A DNA stretch of 33,840 bases from Microcoleus sp. (GCA_042408215.1 JAYFMW010000009.1:1-33840); one strand, 5' to 3'; positions 4,133 through 31,572 are shown, counted from the stretch's first letter. Numbers and translations are program-made. The notes: generated from the sequence alone by a model not told the origin.

Positions 4133-7094
4133 TTACTTAGTTTTATTCTTAGTCGTTGTCGCAGTCGCCGTCTTTTTAGCAGCAGTAGTTTTCTTCGCAG
4201 CAGTTGTCGATTTCGCCGCCGTAGTCTTCTTAGCCGCAGTTTCCGACTTCGCCGCAGTAGTTTTCTTAGCAGTAGTTGTTTTCTTCGCAGCAGTTTCCGA
4301 CTTCGCCGCAGTAGTCTTAGTTGACTTCTTCGACTTGCTGCTAGATTTTCCGCCGCCCGCTGCTTCCTTCGCTGCTAACAAATCCAGTGCTTTTTGTAAG
4401 GTGAAATTCTCCACTGATTCATCCTTAGCCAAAGACGCATTGATTTCCCCGTGTTTGACGTAGGGCCCATAACGGCCATCGTAAACATTGAGGAGTTCTC
4501 CCGATTCTGGATGGGCGCCCAATTCCTTCAACGGTGTGGCTGTTTTGCTGCTTCCCCGAACGGCTTTTGGCTGGGCTAATAGTTCTAATGCCCGATCGAG
4601 GCCTATACTTAAAACATCATCAGGTGGTTTGATCGATCGATAATCCTTACCCACCTTACCTTGGTCGTGCACCACATAAGGCCCATACATCCCCAAATTA
4701 GCCTGCACCTTCGCCCCCGTATCCGGGTGAGTGCCCAACAAGCGCGGCAGAGTCAGCAAACTCACAGCCATCTCCATAGTCACACTATCTTTATCCGTCC
4801 CCTTCGGCAAAGAAGCCCGCTTCGGTTTCTTGTTAGTTTCCGACACTTCCCCTAACTGAACGTAAGGCCCATAACTACCAATCAGCACAAAAATCGGTTC
4901 CCCAGTTTCCGGGTGGAGACCCAATGTTTCCGGGCCTTCAGTTTTTTGCTTTAACAAAAACTCGACTTGTTCCGGGTCTAAATCCGCCGGCGTCAAATCT
5001 TGAGGAATCGATGCTTTTATCGGCCCTTCTTCCCTTTCAGCTTCGAGGTAAGCGCCGTATTTGCCGATACACACTTTGGCAGATATATTCTCCAATACCA
5101 CAGTGCGGGCAACTTTGGCATCAATTTGACTTTCCTGTTCTTTGACTTGAGTTGCGAGTCCAGTTTCCCCTCGATAAAACTTGTCCAAATACGGCAGCCA
5201 TTTAGCTTCGCCGGTAGCAATTTCATCGAGGGTTTGTTCCATTCTGGAAGTAAAACCGGTGTCTACTAAATCGGGAAAATATGTTTCCAATAAAGTAGTG
5301 ACAGCGAAAGCAGTGAAAGTGGGAATTAAGGCGTTGGTGATTAATTTCGCGTAACCGCGATCGACTATAGTGCCGATAATACTCGCATAGGTACTCGGAC
5401 GACCCACCCCTTCACTTTCGAGCGTTTTGACGAGAGAAGCTTCTGTGAAAGCGGGCGGGAGGCTGAGTTTCGTGGCCGATCGCCTCTAAGTCCTTACAAT
5501 TAGGTTGATCGCCCACTTTCAGTGCCGGCAAAATCACCTCTTGGTCTTCCAAAGCCGCATCCGGGTCATCGGAACCCTCCACGTAGGCCCGCAAAAAGCC
5601 GGGAAAATCGATGCGTTTCCCACTGGAACGAAAACCCGCATCTTCCACCTGAGTCAGTACCGTGACGTGAGTTTGGCGCGAATCAGCCATTTGAGAAGCG
5701 ACAGTCCGCTTCCAAATCAAATCGTAGAGGCGGAAATCAACGCCATCGAGTCCGGTTTGCTGCGGAGTCCGAAAAGTGCTACCGGCGGGACGGATAGCTT
5801 CGTGGGCTTCCTGAGCACCTTTGCTTTTGGTCGTGTATTTGCGCGGTTGGGGGCTGAGGTATTCGCTACCGTAAAGTTCTTGGACGCAACTGCGGGCTGC
5901 GGCGATCGCCTGTTCCGATAAATGCACCGAATCCGTCCGCATATAGGTGATAAAACCGCGTTCGTACAGACTTTGGGCGATTCGCATAGTTTCACGCGCA
6001 CCCAGCCTCAGCTTGCGGTTAGCTTCCTGCTGCAAAGTCGAGGTTGTAAACGGTGGCGAAGGTTTCCGGGTGACTGGCCGTTCTTCGAGATTGGTGACAG
6101 TCCAAGGTTTGTTTTGAATGCGCGAGAGTAAAGCCCGCGCCTGTGGTTCATTCAGCAAAAGTACGCGGCGGCCTGCGATAATTTGCCCGGTACTTTCATC
6201 AAAATCGCTACCGTTGGCAACTTTCACATTGCCTACTGTTACCAGTTTGGCATCAAAGGCACCCCCCTGTCCCCCCTTACCAAGGGGGGTATTGTCCGAA
6301 GCCCCCCCCTTACCAAGGGGGGTATTGTCCGAAGCCCCCCCCTTACCAAGGGGGGTATTGTCCGAAGCCCCCCCCTTACCAAGGGGGGTATTGTCCGAAG
6401 CCCCCCCCTTACCAAGGGGGGTATTGTCCGAAGCCCCCCCCTTACCAAGGGGGGGGTTGGGGGGGGTCAAAGTCGCTTTTAAATCCCAGTAGCTACCTTG
6501 GTGGAAGGCGCGGCGTTCCCTTTCCCGGCATACCAAAAGGCGCACGGCGACTGACTGCACTCTGCCGGCGGACAAGCCCCAGGCGATTTTTTTCCACAAG
6601 AGGGGCGAAAGGGTGTAACCGACGAGTCTGTCGAGAATCCGGCGAGTTTCTTGGGCTTGTACTACTCGATTGTCGATGTCGCGACAGTGAGTCAAAGCAT
6701 CGCGGATGGCTTCGCGGGTGATTTCGTGAAACACCATCCGTTTGATGGGAACTTTGGGTTTGAGGATTTGCAGCAAATGCCAGGAAATGCTTTCGCCTTC
6801 GCGGTCTTCGTCTGTGGCTAGAATCAGTTCTGTTGCTTCTTTGAGGGCTTCTTTGAGTTCTTTGACAATTTTCTTTTTATCTTTCGGGATGACGTAGAGG
6901 GGTTCAAAGTCGGCCTCCACGTTTACGCCGAGTTGCGCCCATTTTTCTCCTTTGACGGCTTCTGGTATTTCTTCGGCGGAGGATGGGAGGTCGCGCACAT
7001 GGCCCATCGATGCCTCTACACGGTAGGTGGAGGGCAGGAAGTTGCGAATGGTGCGGGCTTTTGTGGGAGATTCGACGATGACTAGGGTTGACAT
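4133..7094 (-). CDS. topA: DNA topoisomerase I, split by a 1-nt frameshift near 5448-5450
   Basis: [50 protein letters not shown]-terminal repeats and a Lys/Ala/Thr tail. Deleting one base restores [23 protein letters not shown]. Confidence 0.95.
6262..6466. repeat. In-frame 33-bp palindromic tandem array inside topA
   Basis: Unit ccccccttaccaaggggggtattgtccgaagcc; encodes PLGKGG six times, separated by five ASDNT. Confidence 0.95.
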
Positions 7095-12500: not shown

Positions 12501-14585
12501 CTACTTCGCAGCTTGACGCTCTTTGGCCGCCTTGATCACTTCTTCAGCGATGTTGCTCGGACAAGGAGAATAGTGAGAGAACGACATTGAGAACTGTCCG
12601 CGCCCAGATGTCATAGTACGCAAGTCGCTAATGTAGCCAAACATTTCGCTCAACGGCACATCTGCCTTGATGCGTGCTCCTGTCTGGTTTGTTTCCTGAG
12701 ATTTCATCATCCCCCGGCGGCGGTTGAGGTCTCCGATGACATCGCCCATGTAATCATCTGGAGTGAATACATCGACATTCATAATCGGTTCGAGCAACTG
12801 AGGCCCCGCTTTCGGAATAGATTGCCGATAGGCCGCTTTTGCAGCAATTTCAAAGGCCATCGCCGACGAGTCAACGGGGTGGAAACCGCCTTCTAGGAGC
12901 GTGAATTTCAAGTCTAAGCAGGGGAATCCAGCCAAGACGCCTTTGTCGATGCAGCTTTCAAAGCCTTTTTCGACGGCTGGCCAATATTCTCTCGGTACGC
13001 TACCACCGGTCACTTTTGATTCAAATATGAAGCCGCTTCCAGGCTCACCAGGCTCGATCACGTAGCCGATTTTGGCAAATTGACCAGAACCACCTGATTG
13101 CTTTTTGTGGGTGTAATCGTCTTCGAGGCGCTTGGTAATCGACTCGCGGTAGGCTACCTGTGGTTCGCCAACTTCTACTTCGACGCCGTGGGTGCGCTTG
13201 AGAATGTCTACTTTGATGTCGAGGTGTAACTCGCCCATCCCCTTGAGAATCATTTCGCCGCTTTCTTGATCCGTCACCATGTGGAAGGATGGGTCTTCTT
13301 GCACCATCTTGGTGAGGGCTGCTCCCATTTTTTCTTCGCCGCCTTTTAGCTTCGGTCTGACCGAAATTGAAATTACGGGTTCTGGGAAGACCATTGGCTC
13401 TAGGGTTGCGGGATTTTTGGGGTCGCAGATGGTGTGTCCGGTGCGGACGTTTTTCATGCCGACGATCGCCACAATGTCCCCTGCTTGAGCCGATTCAATT
13501 TCTTCGCGAGAGTTGGCGTGCATTTCCACCAAACGGCTGATTCGCTCGGTTTTGCCTGTGGCGGTGTTGAGTACGGTGTCGCCCTTGGACAACTTACCGG
13601 AGTACAGGCGGGTGAAGGTTAGAGCACCGTAGCGATCGTCCATGATCTTAAACGCGAGTGCTCGCAATGGCTTGTTGGGATCGACGATCGCAAATTCGCC
13701 GGTTTCATTCCCATCGAGATCGACTTCTGGCTGTGGTGTGACTTCCATCGGGTTTGGCAGGTAGTCAACCACGGCATCCAGTACCAACTGCACGCCCTTG
13801 TTTTTAAACGATGAGCCGCAGTAGGTGGGGAAAAATGCCCGATCGCGACAGCCTTTGCGAATACAGCGCTTGAGGTCATCAATACTCGGCTCATTGCCTT
13901 CGAGATATTGTTCCATCAGAGCGTCGTCTTGCTCGACGGCCAGTTCGATCAACTGTTCGCGCCAAGTTTCGACATCATCGACCATATCGGCTGGTACATC
14001 TTTAATTTGATAGTTCATCGGGTCGCCGGAGTCATCCCAGATCCAGGCTTTGCGGGTCAGCAAATCGACTACGCCGCAAAATTTTTCTTCAATGCCGATC
14101 GGCAATACCATGACCATCGGTTTAGCTGCGAGGATTTTATCAACTTGCTTGACAACGCGGTAAAAATCTGCACCGGTGCGATCGAGCTTATTGATGTAGA
14201 TAACACGAGCAACTTTGGAATCGTTAGCGTAACGCCAGTTGGTTTCAGATTGAGGTTCGACTCCACCTGAAGCACAGAACACACCGATGCCACCATCGAG
14301 AACCTTCAGGGAACGGTAGACTTCAATGGTGAAATCTACGTGTCCAGGGGTATCGATGATGTTCAGTTGGTGATCGTTCCAAAAACAAGTTGTAGCAGCG
14401 GACTGAATCGTAATCCCGCGCTCTTGCTCTTGTTCCATGAAGTCCGTCGTCGCCGCGCCTTCGTGTACTTCACCAATTTTGTGGATTTTACCAGTCAGTT
14501 TCAGGATTCTTTCGGTGGTGGTGGTTTTGCCAGCATCTACGTGGGCGAAGATGCCGATATTTCGATAACGAGTGAGATCTTTCAT
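12501..14585 (-). CDS. fusA: Elongation factor G, stand-alone paralogue outside the str operon
   Basis: [33 protein letters not shown]; 694 aa. Confidence 0.95.
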
Positions 14586-14646
14586 AAAAAAGTTCGGTAA
14601 GTGGGAAACTTAGAGGCTTCAGCCCTGAGAGGGAAACTCTAAGGGG

Positions 14647-14844
14647 CATTGGTGTCAACTTAACGTTAAACCCAGTCAGAGACTGCTGTTTGACTATTAA
14701 GGCCAGATCCCCCCTAGCCCCCCTTAAGAAGGGGGGGACAGGAGTCTTCTCAAAGTCCCCCTTCTTAAGGGGGATTTAGGGGGATCTAGACTTGGCGTAA
14801 AACCCAGATTTCTCAAGGGTTTCAGGCTTAAGTTGACACCAATG
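14647..14844. mobile_element. 198-bp MITE nested in the HEARO element
   Basis: 17-bp inverted termini CATTGGTGTCAACTTAA; 9-bp target duplication TCTAAGGGG (14638-14646 and 14845-14853). Confidence 0.9.
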
Positions 14845-14932
14845 TCTAAGGGGGACTTCGGTCTAGAGTGAATCCCCTTGTGGGGGTGGAGGGGTATGGT
14901 TGCCCCTCCGTGGAGCTCTGGTTGTCTCCGAA

Positions 14933-15165
14933 TCCCTTTCGGGTAAAGTTCGCGCGCGCCTTTGTTATAAGAGCTTGCGCCGGCTTGCAGCACTGTCGAG
15001 CGTGACTTTAAGACTGTTTAACTACAAGCGACAGAGCCCAAAACTAGCGTCGCATTCAAGGAGTGTCGTGACTCAAATAACGTAGCCAGTTAAGGCGATA
15101 GCTGGTCAGTACAGCTTGCTTGATTGCTCTTACAAGCTCAGTCCCTTTAGGGCTGAGTTACTAAC
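14933..15165 (-). ncRNA. HEARO / IscB omegaRNA scaffold
   Basis: Minus strand reads GTTAGTAACTCAGCCCTAAAGGGACTGAGCTTG...GACCAG...CTACGTTATTTGAGTCACGACAC...GCTAGT...CTCTGTCGC...TTAAACAG...CAGTG...ATAAC...AACTTTACCCGAAAGGGA, the order of conserved HEARO segments. Confidence 0.8.
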
Positions 15166-15896
15166 TGTAATCTGAAGTTGACTTCCTGCTTCACTTGAAC
15201 ACGAGTTGATGCAGCTTGGAGGAGTTTCCTCACCCAAGTATCGGTTTCGATTTACCGAGGCGTTAGTTCCGGCGTTACCCGCCGTAATTAATGCTTGTTC
15301 TATCTAATATGTTTCGTGCCACCTTCCAGTCTCTATTTTGGGTATCCCCGCTGCGGATGACCTTTATGAGTTCTGGACGAGAGAGATTTTTTGTGGTTCG
15401 ACTTCGCACGCACCGTTTTCTGGCGATCGCTTCAACAATTTTCCCACAATTGGAACATTTTTGAGAAGTATAGTTAAGACTAACTGCTACGGTTGCGACT
15501 ACTCAATAGGAACATATCTACTTTAAGTGTAATTACATAAATCTTACCATAGAATTTGCTAAAAATTTGTGGTTCGACTTCAAGGGCGCCTACCGGGCGA
15601 AGTTTTAACTATTTCCGCTACCTGATTGGCTTGTAGCCAGTTGCAGCCAGAAAGAGGCGATCGGACTCGTTGCTTCAACCGTGGTTCGACTTCCCACGCA
15701 CTGTTTCGCCGATCGGCATTATACTCGCTTTCCGATCGCCACAGAGGATGCCCGATCGGCGATCGGCAACAAACACCCGCAAAACAGGGAGCGCGAGGGG
15801 GATTCCGCGATACAATCGGTGTTTGGTAAAGAATTTCTCAAAGCTCACTGCCCATTACAGGCTTGTGGGCCTGTATTACCCAACTTGTCTGAAAAT

Positions 15897-23311: not shown

Positions 23312-24859
23312 TTGACACTCCCCGGTCTAAAGACACGGGGATTCTTAAGGACAAACTTTGGGGGATGAATCCGCCCAAAGTTTAATTCTTAAAGGGTTAG
23401 TCAGCAACCCGCTACCCACTCGCTCGATAATTGAGTCTATGGCTACTTTTGACTTTCTGATGATGTTGGCTGCACCATTAATATCTGCATTCAATATTAA
23501 TCCCTGAGCCGAACGGTACAACCCTCTCTTGATTCTTTTACCTGATGGTTGCCAATTGTCAGGTTTTTCACCGACTTTTACTGGCAAAATGTCTCGGTCT
23601 AAAAAACTTGCTTTTGATGTGTAAGATTCGTCTTGTTCGACAAATCGCCACCCCTTTAAGTCACATTCTTGTTGGAGTCTATCTTTGACTTTAGCAGTGG
23701 GTATTTGGACAAAATTCTGATTAGTCACGACCCCCATATTAACCTCTTGCTTCTCTCCCTTGTTCCAGCCAAAGACTAAGACGTTTATTTGGTTGTTTTC
23801 GCAATAATCTACGATGGTTCTAACTGCTTTATTAACAGCATCTCTCATCCTTATAGTGCGAATTTCCGACAACTGCTGCAATCTTTTTGACGAGAAACCT
23901 TTGGGCAATTTATGTATTGCGTGTTCTGATTGAACTCTCGCTTTTTCTTTGTTAAACCATTGGTTCCAAGACTTGAGTCTATGTCCATCAATGATGAAAG
24001 GTTTACCATTGCTAGAGACACAAGTTAACCAGTTGTTGATGCCGCGATCGATGCCCAGATCCCCTGTCACTTCCAAGCTGCAACTAGGGGCTTGTTCAGT
24101 CAGGGATTCGTGGACATATTCAACCCATACCGTACCATTTCTAGGGATTAACCTGAGTTCTTTGATCTGGCAATTCTTGATACGTTCAGGTAGCGGAACC
24201 CAAAGCGCATCTTTCCCAAAGTATTCTTTTCCTTTTTTCCCTAGGGGTAATCTGACTTTATTTCCAATTACCTTTAAGGCTTGACCTGGATATGAAACAG
24301 GGTGCATTCCCCCTTTGGTTCTGTACCTTGGTAGTCTCGGTTTTTGATGGATTTATCCTTGATTTGCCAACTTCTCTAAGGCTCGGAAAGAAGTAAAAGA
24401 TTCCGCGACAGATTTAATAGATTGTTGGGCAACTTGAGAGTATAGTAACCCATAATTTTCGTTGGTTTTGGCTATTTTATACAAATCTGGATATTTAACT
24501 GCGATTTGGTTCTTAAAGTATCGTTGCCGACTTTCGTAAGTTCCGACATTAAACAGATTATTTGACCATCTCAAGAGTTGTTCGACAAGGGTTTTGTCGA
24601 GTCCTTTTAAATGCCAAACATCTTTTTGTACTGCGTACATTGAAATTACTGGCTATGGTGACACTAGGTTTAGTATAGATCGTGAATTAACAAGTTAATT
24701 AATCCTCAACAAATCTTTACCTTGGTCTCAATTGCTAGAAGTATTTGTCCGGGGACGGTTAAACATTATGTTATATTGAAACTTACGAACAGGCAGGATA
24801 AATCCTGCCACGCCCTTTCATCCCTGGACTAAAGTCACAGGGTTTTCAGGGTATTTCTT
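23312..24859 (-). mobile_element. IS200/IS605 tnpB-only element, copy 1 (1548 bp)
   Basis: TTTAT 5' of the left end, right end hairpin ending TCAA; identity with copy 2 stops at these ends. Confidence 0.92.
23345..24640 (-). pseudogene. tnpB: TnpB with nonsense codon 96
   Basis: GAA in copy 2 is TAA here (24353-24355); both ORF halves share one frame; GIDRG, ESYTS and NAD motifs. Confidence 0.9.
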
Positions 24860-30024: not shown

Positions 30025-31572
30025 AAGAAATACCCTGAAAACCCTGTGACTTTAGTCCAGGGATGAAAGGGCGTGGCAGGATTTATCCTGCCTGTTCGTA
30101 AGTTTCAATATAACATAATGTTTAACCGTCCCCGGACAAATACTTCTAGCAATTGAGACCAAGGTAAAGATTTGTTTAGGATTAATTAACTTGTTAATTC
30201 ACGATATATACTAAACCTAGTGTCACAATAGCCAGTAAGTTAAATGTACGCAGTACAAAAAGATGTTTGGCATTTAAAAGGACTCGACAAAACCATTGTC
30301 GAACAACTACTAAGATGGTCAAATAATCTGTTTAATGTCGGAACTTACGAAAGTCGGCAACAATACTTTACAAACCAAATCGCAGTTAAATATCCAGATT
30401 TGTATAAAATAGCTAAAACCAACGAAAATTACGGGTTGCTATACTCTCAAGTTGCCCAGCAATCTCTTAAATCTGTTGCGGAATCTTTTACTTCTTTCCG
30501 AGCTTTAGAGAAGTTGGCAAATCAAGGAGAAATCCATCAAAAACCGAGACTACCAAGGTACAGAACCAAAGGGGGAATGCACCCTGTTTCATATCCCGGT
30601 CAAGCATTAAAGGTAATTGGAAATAAAGTCAGATTACCCCTGGGGAAAAAAGGAAAAGAATACTTTGGGAAAGATGCGATTTGGGTGCCGCTACCTGAAC
30701 GTATCAAGAATTGCCAGATCGAAGAACTCAGGTTAATCCCTAGGAATGGTGAGGTCTGGGTCGAATATGTCCACGAATCTCTGACTGAACAAGCCCCTAG
30801 TTGTAGCTTGGAAGTGACAGGGGTTCTGGGAATAGATCATGGCATCAATAACTGGTTAACTTGTGTCTCTAGCAATGGTAAACCTTTCATCATTGATGGA
30901 CATAGACTCAAGTCTTGGAACCAATGGTTTAACAAAGAAAAAGCGAGAATTCAATCAGAACACGTAATACATAAATTGCCCAAAGGTTTCTAGTCAAAAA
31001 GATTGCAGCAGTTGTCGGAAATTCGCACTATAAGGATGAGAGATGCTGTTAATAAAGCAGTTAGAACCATCGTAGATTATTGCGAAAACAACCAAATAAA
31101 CGTCTTAGTCTTTGGCTGGAACAAGGGACAGAAGCAAGAGGTTAATATGGGGGTCGTGACTAATCAGAATTTTGTCCAAATACCCACTGCTAAAGTCAAA
31201 GATAGACTCCAACAAGAATGTGACTTAAAGGGGTGGCGATTTGTCGAACAAGACGAATCTTACACATCAAAAGCAAGTTTTTTAGACCGAGACATTTTGC
31301 CAGTAAAAGTCGGTGAAAAACCTGACAATTGGCAACCATCGGGTCAAAGAATCAAAAGAGGATTGTACTGTTCTAGCGCTGGGTTGTTAATCAATGCAGA
31401 CGTTAACGGTGCAGCTAATATCATTAGAAAATCAAAAGTAGCCATAGACTTAATTATTGAGCGAGTGGGTAGTGGGTTGCTGACTAATCCTTTGAGAATT
31501 AAACTTTGGGCGGATTCATCCCCCAAAGTTTGTCCTTAAGAATCCCCGTGTCTTTAGACCGGGGAGTGTCAA
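30025..31572 (+). mobile_element. IS200/IS605 tnpB-only element, copy 2 (1548 bp)
   Basis: TTTAT at 30020-30024; TCAA end at 31572; near-identical to copy 1. Confidence 0.92.
30244..31539 (+). pseudogene. tnpB: TnpB with nonsense codon 250
   Basis: TCG in copy 1 is TAG here (30991-30993); the frame continues to 431 codons. Confidence 0.9.

Follow-up and report, generated by a model that had tools for sequence, protein, structure and literature searches.

A protein-less omegaRNA element at the start codon of a Microcoleus EF-G gene, and the docking of its relatives at gene starts

How does a mobile element come to lie exactly at the start codon of an EF-G gene, and what could keep it there? 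The case comes from a window of Microcoleus sp. DNA (the whole stretch analysed, 33,840 nucleotides; GCA_042408215.1 JAYFMW010000009.1:1-33840), for which a reading made from the sequence alone had proposed that an orphan HEARO/omegaRNA element abuts fusA, that the ATGA of the start codon was its target and that the native leader, pushed upstream, now serves as the guide. The explanation that we favour, and on balance hold to be probable, is that a protein-less element moved by TnpA settled at the ATGA of fusA, replaced the leader and persists by way of a guide RNA made from a host promoter for an IscB acting in trans. What is new here, and worth following, are a control with TnpB-type elements and the replacement of a leader from one ATGA to the next.

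Anatomy of the element

The element itself is real and of a known kind, a non-autonomous, omegaRNA-bearing derivative of IS200/IS605 (Table 1). HEARO (RF02033), the sole Rfam family matched within the window, is found by its covariance model with 110.8 bits, above the gathering score (83), and over all of the model, positions 1–211 of 211, which bears out the proposed omegaRNA; the copy, full-length but an orphan, ranks 56th by score among the 70 in the genome, with a few pairs lost, and its scaffold is 80% identical to the omegaRNA of an intact iscB copy (C8:38348). The 580-nt element is co-oriented with fusA and has its left end flush with the ATG, at 14585/14586, as had been noted, and no iscB or IsrB reading frame was found within 14586–15165. 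ISC elements proper encode IscB or IsrB, and the element is thus an ISC derivative. At the other end, homology to the relatives breaks off at 15165/15166, where the 5′ end of the scaffold is also the end of the element, and the guide comes from the flank.

Like a PATE, the element has subterminal hairpins at both ends, neither terminal inverted repeats nor an open reading frame, and a fixed target beside the left end without target duplication; protein-less PATEs of the IscB type are already known (bioRxiv 10.1101/2023.03.14.532601). It departs from a PATE at this locus in that the empty site is not scarless, 154 nt of flank being absent, and in that the right-end motif no longer matches the DNA guide intact, GTTA being a point change in this copy. 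The missing 154 nt may be read as a secondary event, given that unrelated copies sit precisely at the same fusA start in other genomes. The altered base is the third of the right end, where 58 of the genome's 70 HEARO copies have GTCA, and it still pairs in the HEARO RNA, as G-U.

This GTTA right end and a 198-nt MITE at 14647–14844 had both escaped the sequence-only reading. The MITE is a later insertion into the element; its family has 30 paired-end copies in the genome, 5 of them with a 9-bp duplication, its core returns several hundred BLAST matches, and in a DNA run the contigs that hold sister copies skip it. With the MITE and one duplicated target copy removed, the core of the element is only 373 nt long, and the nearest sister copy (G000 C3:441114–441509) is ~91% identical. 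An HMM of the window's left end matches 43 copies in the genome, and the pattern is found, among the matches listed, mainly in Microcoleus and Tychonema records; on the RNA strand, this left end supplies a U-run immediately 5′ of the AUG. As an observation apart, the copies of the MITE family sit mostly in one short palindromic repeat.

Table 1. Features of the fusA locus (window coordinates) and of a second element that replaces a leader
Feature	Position	Strand	Basis
fusA, 694-aa EF-G, intact	12501–14585	-	TIGR00484, 968 bits
Target motif ATGA, bases 1–4 of fusA (TCAT on the transposase top strand)	14582–14585	-	sequence
Non-autonomous IS200/IS605 element (ISC-derived, PATE-like)	14586–15165	-	sequence, sister copies
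Left end: A-run, candidate guide, hairpin	14586–14629	+	sequence; left-end HMM
Candidate DNA guide GAAA	14605–14608	+	inferred from the IS608 pairing rule
Subterminal hairpin of left end	14609–14629	+	sequence
MITE, 198 nt	14647–14844		17-bp inverted repeats, 9-bp target duplication
Copies of MITE target duplication	14638–14646 and 14845–14853		sequence
Internal linker where iscB was lost, without ORF	14854–14942	-	ORF scan
HEARO/omegaRNA scaffold, complete; 5′ end is the right end of the element	14943–15165	-	RF02033
Predicted guide (host flank)	15166–15185	-	relatives' alleles; junction in runs X10, X14, X15
Likely 5′ end of host transcript entering the element (weak hint)	15507–15517	-	RNA contig stops
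Response-regulator element	G000 C23:22798–24418 versus C28:256597–256787 (L313, L317)		broken iscB inside

An intact iscB, which the sequence-only reading had suggested looking for, is indeed to be had: the genome holds 16 iscB ORFs of 388–445 aa, 10 of them with all five checked motifs, and there are also 12 near-full-length matches without stops to Y1 TnpA (PF01797). One iscB with the window's left-end type was confirmed by Pfam, and 14 of the 16 long ORFs are without the three left-end types used. A TnpA encoded elsewhere is the likely mover of the element.

Several of these traits have counterparts in described systems. ISC1-1_MA of Microcystis aeruginosa, likewise from a cyanobacterial host, has a 5′-GTCA-type end, inserts directly 5′ of ATGA without duplication and shares its left end with oppositely oriented TnpB elements, N|ATGA targets being known in cyanobacterial ISC transposons (PMC4810608); the window element differs in being without iscB and in having its flank replaced, and the accessible text of that paper does not mention start codons. 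ISGst5/GstIscB has the same TTCAT TAM, omegaRNA at the right end and guide from the outside flank, and its PATEs share the protein-less use in trans, the upstream co-orientation and the cut-and-copy retention, whereas the accessible text describes neither start-codon docking nor a loss of flank from TAM to TAM (bioRxiv 10.1101/2023.03.14.532601). In the literature that we searched, with few subscription papers and without supplements, neither docking at start codons nor a flank deletion bounded by TAMs turned up. No intron family reached the Rfam gathering score in the window, and the native allele best accounts for the single joint in RNA that leaves out the element. IStrons, which combine a group I intron with IS605/IS607, are similar as RNA-guided mobile elements that limit harm to host genes; here, unlike in IStrons, no sign of an intron or of splicing was found, and harm is avoided by a position just outside the coding sequence.

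The lost leader

The sequence-only reading expected relatives to carry an element-free junction with a short leader, and named the absence of that junction as grounds for its own refutation. Among 78 genomes of the genus, fusA is present in 74; all 74 were compared, and the junction was found in none of them, nor in the one metagenome match, because 154 nt of leader have been lost. In the closest relatives (G005 and G008) and a metagenome contig (L296), the flank seen in the window is followed by 154 more bases and only then by the fusA ATG; the native leader is thus not merely displaced by 580 nt, its ATG-proximal part being gone. The 154-base piece starts with ATGA, and within 500 nt the only other ATGA is that of the start codon; the element therefore spans the stretch between two target motifs. 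Empty leaders usually end in a conserved block, which is present in 64 of 75 genomes and is included in the lost piece. An assembly error is not the cause, as contigs of runs from three other studies, X10 (DNA), X14 and X15 (RNA), extend across the occupied junction; a further RNA run, X18, carries the long-leader allele.

Comparison with close relatives showed 13 of 14 other occupied starts to be precise within 2 nt, the remaining one being ambiguous. In the only further large flank loss seen, of 42 nt at L124, the G000 allele has ATTA where the missing piece begins, a point against a loss from ATGA to ATGA. A second case running from ATGA to ATGA is that of a 1621-nt element at the start of a response-regulator gene, which we take to be RpaA-like: the leader that it replaces, 191 nt long and with ATGA as its first bases, is present in contig C28 and in G008. 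The guide of this element, followed by ATGA, occurs on C28, and its target thus lies inside the assembly; the 191-nt leader holds three ATGAs, and the case, having been found through a search for guide plus ATGA, is supporting but ascertained.

How such a loss could come about is suggested by the IS608 model, in which the 3′-OH of the right end joins DNA 3′ of the target motif at integration (PMC3597680), and TnpA is described as able to choose, once the right-end motif has been mutated, a boundary that lies beyond the element (bioRxiv 10.1101/2023.03.14.532601). We infer that TnpA would have inserted the element exactly at the fusA start codon and would later have linked its right end with the base that follows the next TCAT of the flanking DNA. 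Such a rejoining would amount to integration chemistry, and it would both delete the 154 nt and reset the guide to flank that adjoins an ATGA in the ancestral allele; the change to GTTA probably now hinders clean excision. The predicted guide differs from the ancestral allele of G008 by one mismatch in 20 nt, with ATGA adjoining, and together with ATGA it has no match in its own genome that would make it self-targeting. The proposal that the guide directs an IscB in trans to the element-free allele is thereby kept in altered form, for the flank does adjoin ATGA in the ancestral long-leader allele, whereas the predicted short-leader junction is absent.

The leader may also have been lost otherwise, which we regard as a possible but clearly less probable course of events. 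As the ATGA at both ends of the lost piece forms a 4-nt direct repeat, a microhomology deletion could have preceded the insertion; insertions at both ATGA sites could have recombined, plausibly so at a start that has been occupied repeatedly; or an element inserted at the upstream ATGA could later have had its left end rejoined at the start codon. All of these routes yield the identical final sequence, but each needs an extra rare event for a pattern seen twice in one genome. An empty allele with the short leader was found neither in the 74 relatives nor in the one metagenome match, and over almost all of its length the element is similar to a single sister copy, without sign of a chimera. Rejoining of the right end by TnpA, the course that we prefer, suggests a simple way of resetting guides and replacing host 5′ leaders, and it would mean that an omegaRNA element need not always lie beside the flank of its original insertion.

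Docking at gene starts and the TnpB-type control

Start-codon docking of HEARO elements is genome-wide. HMMs of three left-end types located 70 ATGA junctions in the genome, and 43 of these are at gene starts against a background of 17% (p=2e-16), the latter being the share of starts among all starts and non-coding ATGA sites and resting on our own crude gene caller (5556 genes, 76% coding). The enrichment that the sequence-only reading had wished to see counted is thus present, and it persists within 200 nt upstream of genes, with 43 of 51 junctions at starts when 51% are expected (p=6e-7). For HEARO-linked junctions, the automatic count of 33/48 at starts became 34/46 after a hand check, in which one junction proved to be another element's and one an internal duplicate and by which petL and petM, missed before, were recovered; rps16, hisG and the gene of a precorrin methylmutase are further examples of occupied starts. 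Across the genus, among the matches listed, 102 of 104 left-end loci abut ATGA, which agrees with the proposed role of the start codon's ATGA as target motif; the listed loci collapse to 70 distinct sites, of which 42 coincide with a homologue's N-terminus, and of the 46 sites that have a HEARO match 31 are at starts. Truncated genes with an internal Met were considered as false starts and rejected, homologues or Pfam profiles beginning at the same place.

The motif is ATGA and not the ATGAA that had been suggested: the fifth base at the 43 occupied starts does not differ from that at 2096 ATGA starts (p=0.29), and a bias toward Met-Lys or Met-Asn is therefore not seen. Two side observations concern the breadth of targets. 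Several other starts (L068, L073, L087, L105, L120, L124 and L355) are apparently occupied by differing element types across genomes. One left-end family has several targets (ATGA, ATAA, GTAA, GTCA and GTGA), each with its own few inner bases, and reads as a natural series of the TnpA DNA-guide code.

Does the motif alone lead elements to gene starts, as had been supposed? A first sister family, TnpB-type and with a closely related left end, has the same ATGA target. Of its 52 matches 30 were examined, and five were excluded, of which one lacked ATGA, two lay at contig ends, one duplicated a site and one had HEARO 1.4 kb upstream; 3 of the other 25 were at starts. A second family of 21 loci, from which three HEARO-bearing loci and one duplicate were dropped, gave 6/17, with two of its five tnpB-bearing sites at starts. 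Pooled, the non-HEARO elements (9/42) are indistinguishable from background (p=0.54) and differ from the HEARO elements in docking with Fisher p=4e-6 to 8e-6, values that overstate the contrast since kin are not independent. In frequency, docking is about four- to fivefold higher in HEARO elements (69%) than in the TnpB-type sisters (12%). The first sister family is about as diverse in sequence as the HEARO set (median 0.72 vs 0.70), and age is thus not an obvious confound. As sisters with the same target remain at background, the motif alone does not explain the docking; and because it is the left end, of a type common to both families, that sets the target, the contrast favours the retention of transcribed copies.

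The omegaRNA of IscB needs transcription from outside the element, and genes upstream are co-oriented for IscB and not for TnpB, with the choice between insertion and retention left open (bioRxiv 10.1101/2023.03.14.532601). Two families that share a target and differ in their need of a promoter bear on this question, and they point to retention. Docking is likely the result of promoter capture and IscB-driven retention, only promoter-capturing copies being kept: a host promoter would drive transcription of flank and scaffold, supplying an IscB from another locus with its guide RNA, and this IscB would cut element-free copies, whose repair from occupied ones would retain the transcribed elements. 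A point against this reading is that TnpB-type elements may be kept off starts by their opposing transcription.

A preference of TnpA for gene starts, or simply harmless insertion there, with the TnpB-type sisters selectively removed, would give a similar picture. The 5′ regions of genes are transcribed and accessible, IS608 prefers highly transcribed genes (PMC5027513), and the two tnpB-bearing starts of the second family fit such a view. We nevertheless think it unlikely, as the first sister family, of the same target and similar diversity, lies at background and not below it, and as the enrichment persists in the 200-nt upstream zone.

Fate of fusA and recurrent occupation of its start

An essential role of fusA was considered and rejected, a different EF-G being present on C28 and C23; the gene stands alone and is a paralogue that shares 50% identity with the other full EF-G of the genome. 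C23 (32 kb) and C28:247–284 kb are collinear and 97–100% identical, differing by mobile-element insertions; they are probably two haplotypes of one region, and the two identical EF-G copies may then be one locus. The window's fusA presumably corresponds to fusB of Synechocystis. That cyanobacterium has three EF-G genes (10.1101/2025.07.21.665844).

Could the insertion have silenced this paralogue? Such an outcome is conceivable where another EF-G exists, where the lost piece includes a widely conserved block and where the element has added long hairpins, and the insertion is recent enough that decay might not yet show. We hold it to be improbable all the same, and the idea, raised by the sequence-only reading, finds no support in the gene itself. 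The ORF is intact, and fusA is full-length (694–695 aa) in every relative whose contig covers it; its differences from G008 amount to 14 synonymous and 2 non-synonymous codons, a comparison of little power for so recent an insertion. A clade of eight genomes that has only a left end at fusA and has lost the same conserved block shows 2626 synonymous against 366 non-synonymous codon differences, with third-position identity down to 0.78; fusA is intact and under purifying selection there. That the starts of rps16, petL, petM and hisG are occupied likewise speaks against silencing.

RNA libraries X14 and X15 cover fusA as well as the occupied right junction, and no terminator-like site was found in the element. 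The RNA contigs of three studies end at 15507, 15508 and 15517, where a DNA run goes on to 15700, a weak hint of a transcript 5′ end ~345 nt upstream of the element; no sigma-70 consensus was found around this candidate end and no promoter in or near the element. The fusA protein would be made from a read-through transcript, the U-rich left end serving as initiation region. In folding predictions, the AUG region has a mean unpaired probability of 0.49, against 0.25–0.72 in other alleles, and is not clearly occluded. Among the reads and contigs of the runs examined, which are without strand or level, none was seen to read through from element to fusA, and no contig bridged the left junction.

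At the level of the genus, an element end lies at the fusA start in 19 of 75 genomes, the other 56 being empty; in 10 of the 19 it belongs to a full HEARO element, in one it is a left end lying behind an insertion that is tnpB-like, and in the eight-genome clade it is a left end only (two automatic labels were corrected by eye). Identity among the window element, the G023 element and the common subtype is 63–75%, which speaks for separate insertions, and the occupations would stem from about four lineages. In the eight-genome clade (L191, L178, L179, L174, L175, L177, L204 and L207), a bare left end is seen directly upstream of the fusA ATG. It is possible there that the initiation region has been fixed as a transposon left end, the native block being lost.

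Recurrence of this kind might suggest that the RNA now serves fusA as a domesticated regulatory leader, the more so as the right end has been altered with the pairing in the RNA kept. We give this very little credence: three quarters of the starts (56/75) are empty, the occupants are unrelated between types, dozens of unrelated genes are occupied alike and the window copy is disrupted by the MITE. Retention of a mobile element remains our preferred reading.

The common subtype, to which the lone left end behind the tnpB-like insertion belongs, has a patchy distribution in the fusA tree and occurs, with a matching 5′ tract, on both sides of the deepest split. In G019 and G046 (L239 and L244), the element is 88–94% identical to copies of the other clade while the third positions of fusA are 66–68% identical, and the first 150 nt of fusA are identical to those of other-clade carriers; G022 and G074 have carrier flanks without the element, as expected after precise excision. 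Against homing, carriers within that other clade resemble each other no more closely than non-carriers drawn at random (fraction 0.47), just 2 of the 104 clade-diagnostic sites fall in the first 300 nt, and the element-free G011 is also a mosaic. Interspecies homing of the element at fusA is thus suggestive at most, with ordinary recombination as the alternative. More broadly, and as a speculation on which we would not insist, omegaRNA-only mini-elements may act as a trans-powered gene drive at gene starts, dependent on host promoters, with guides reprogrammed by TnpA through deletion of flank up to the next ATGA, a valid target being kept, and with homing across species into empty alleles. 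If this were true, dozens of core genes in each genome would have their leaders and initiation regions rewritten.

Two further observations were made elsewhere in the window. A gene at 4133–7094 (-), which we take to be topoisomerase I-like, is split into two ORFs and has a tandem PLGKGG repeat insert. Two near-identical genes, presumably tnpB-like, lie at 23345–24640 (-) and 30244–31539 (+) and are broken at different places.
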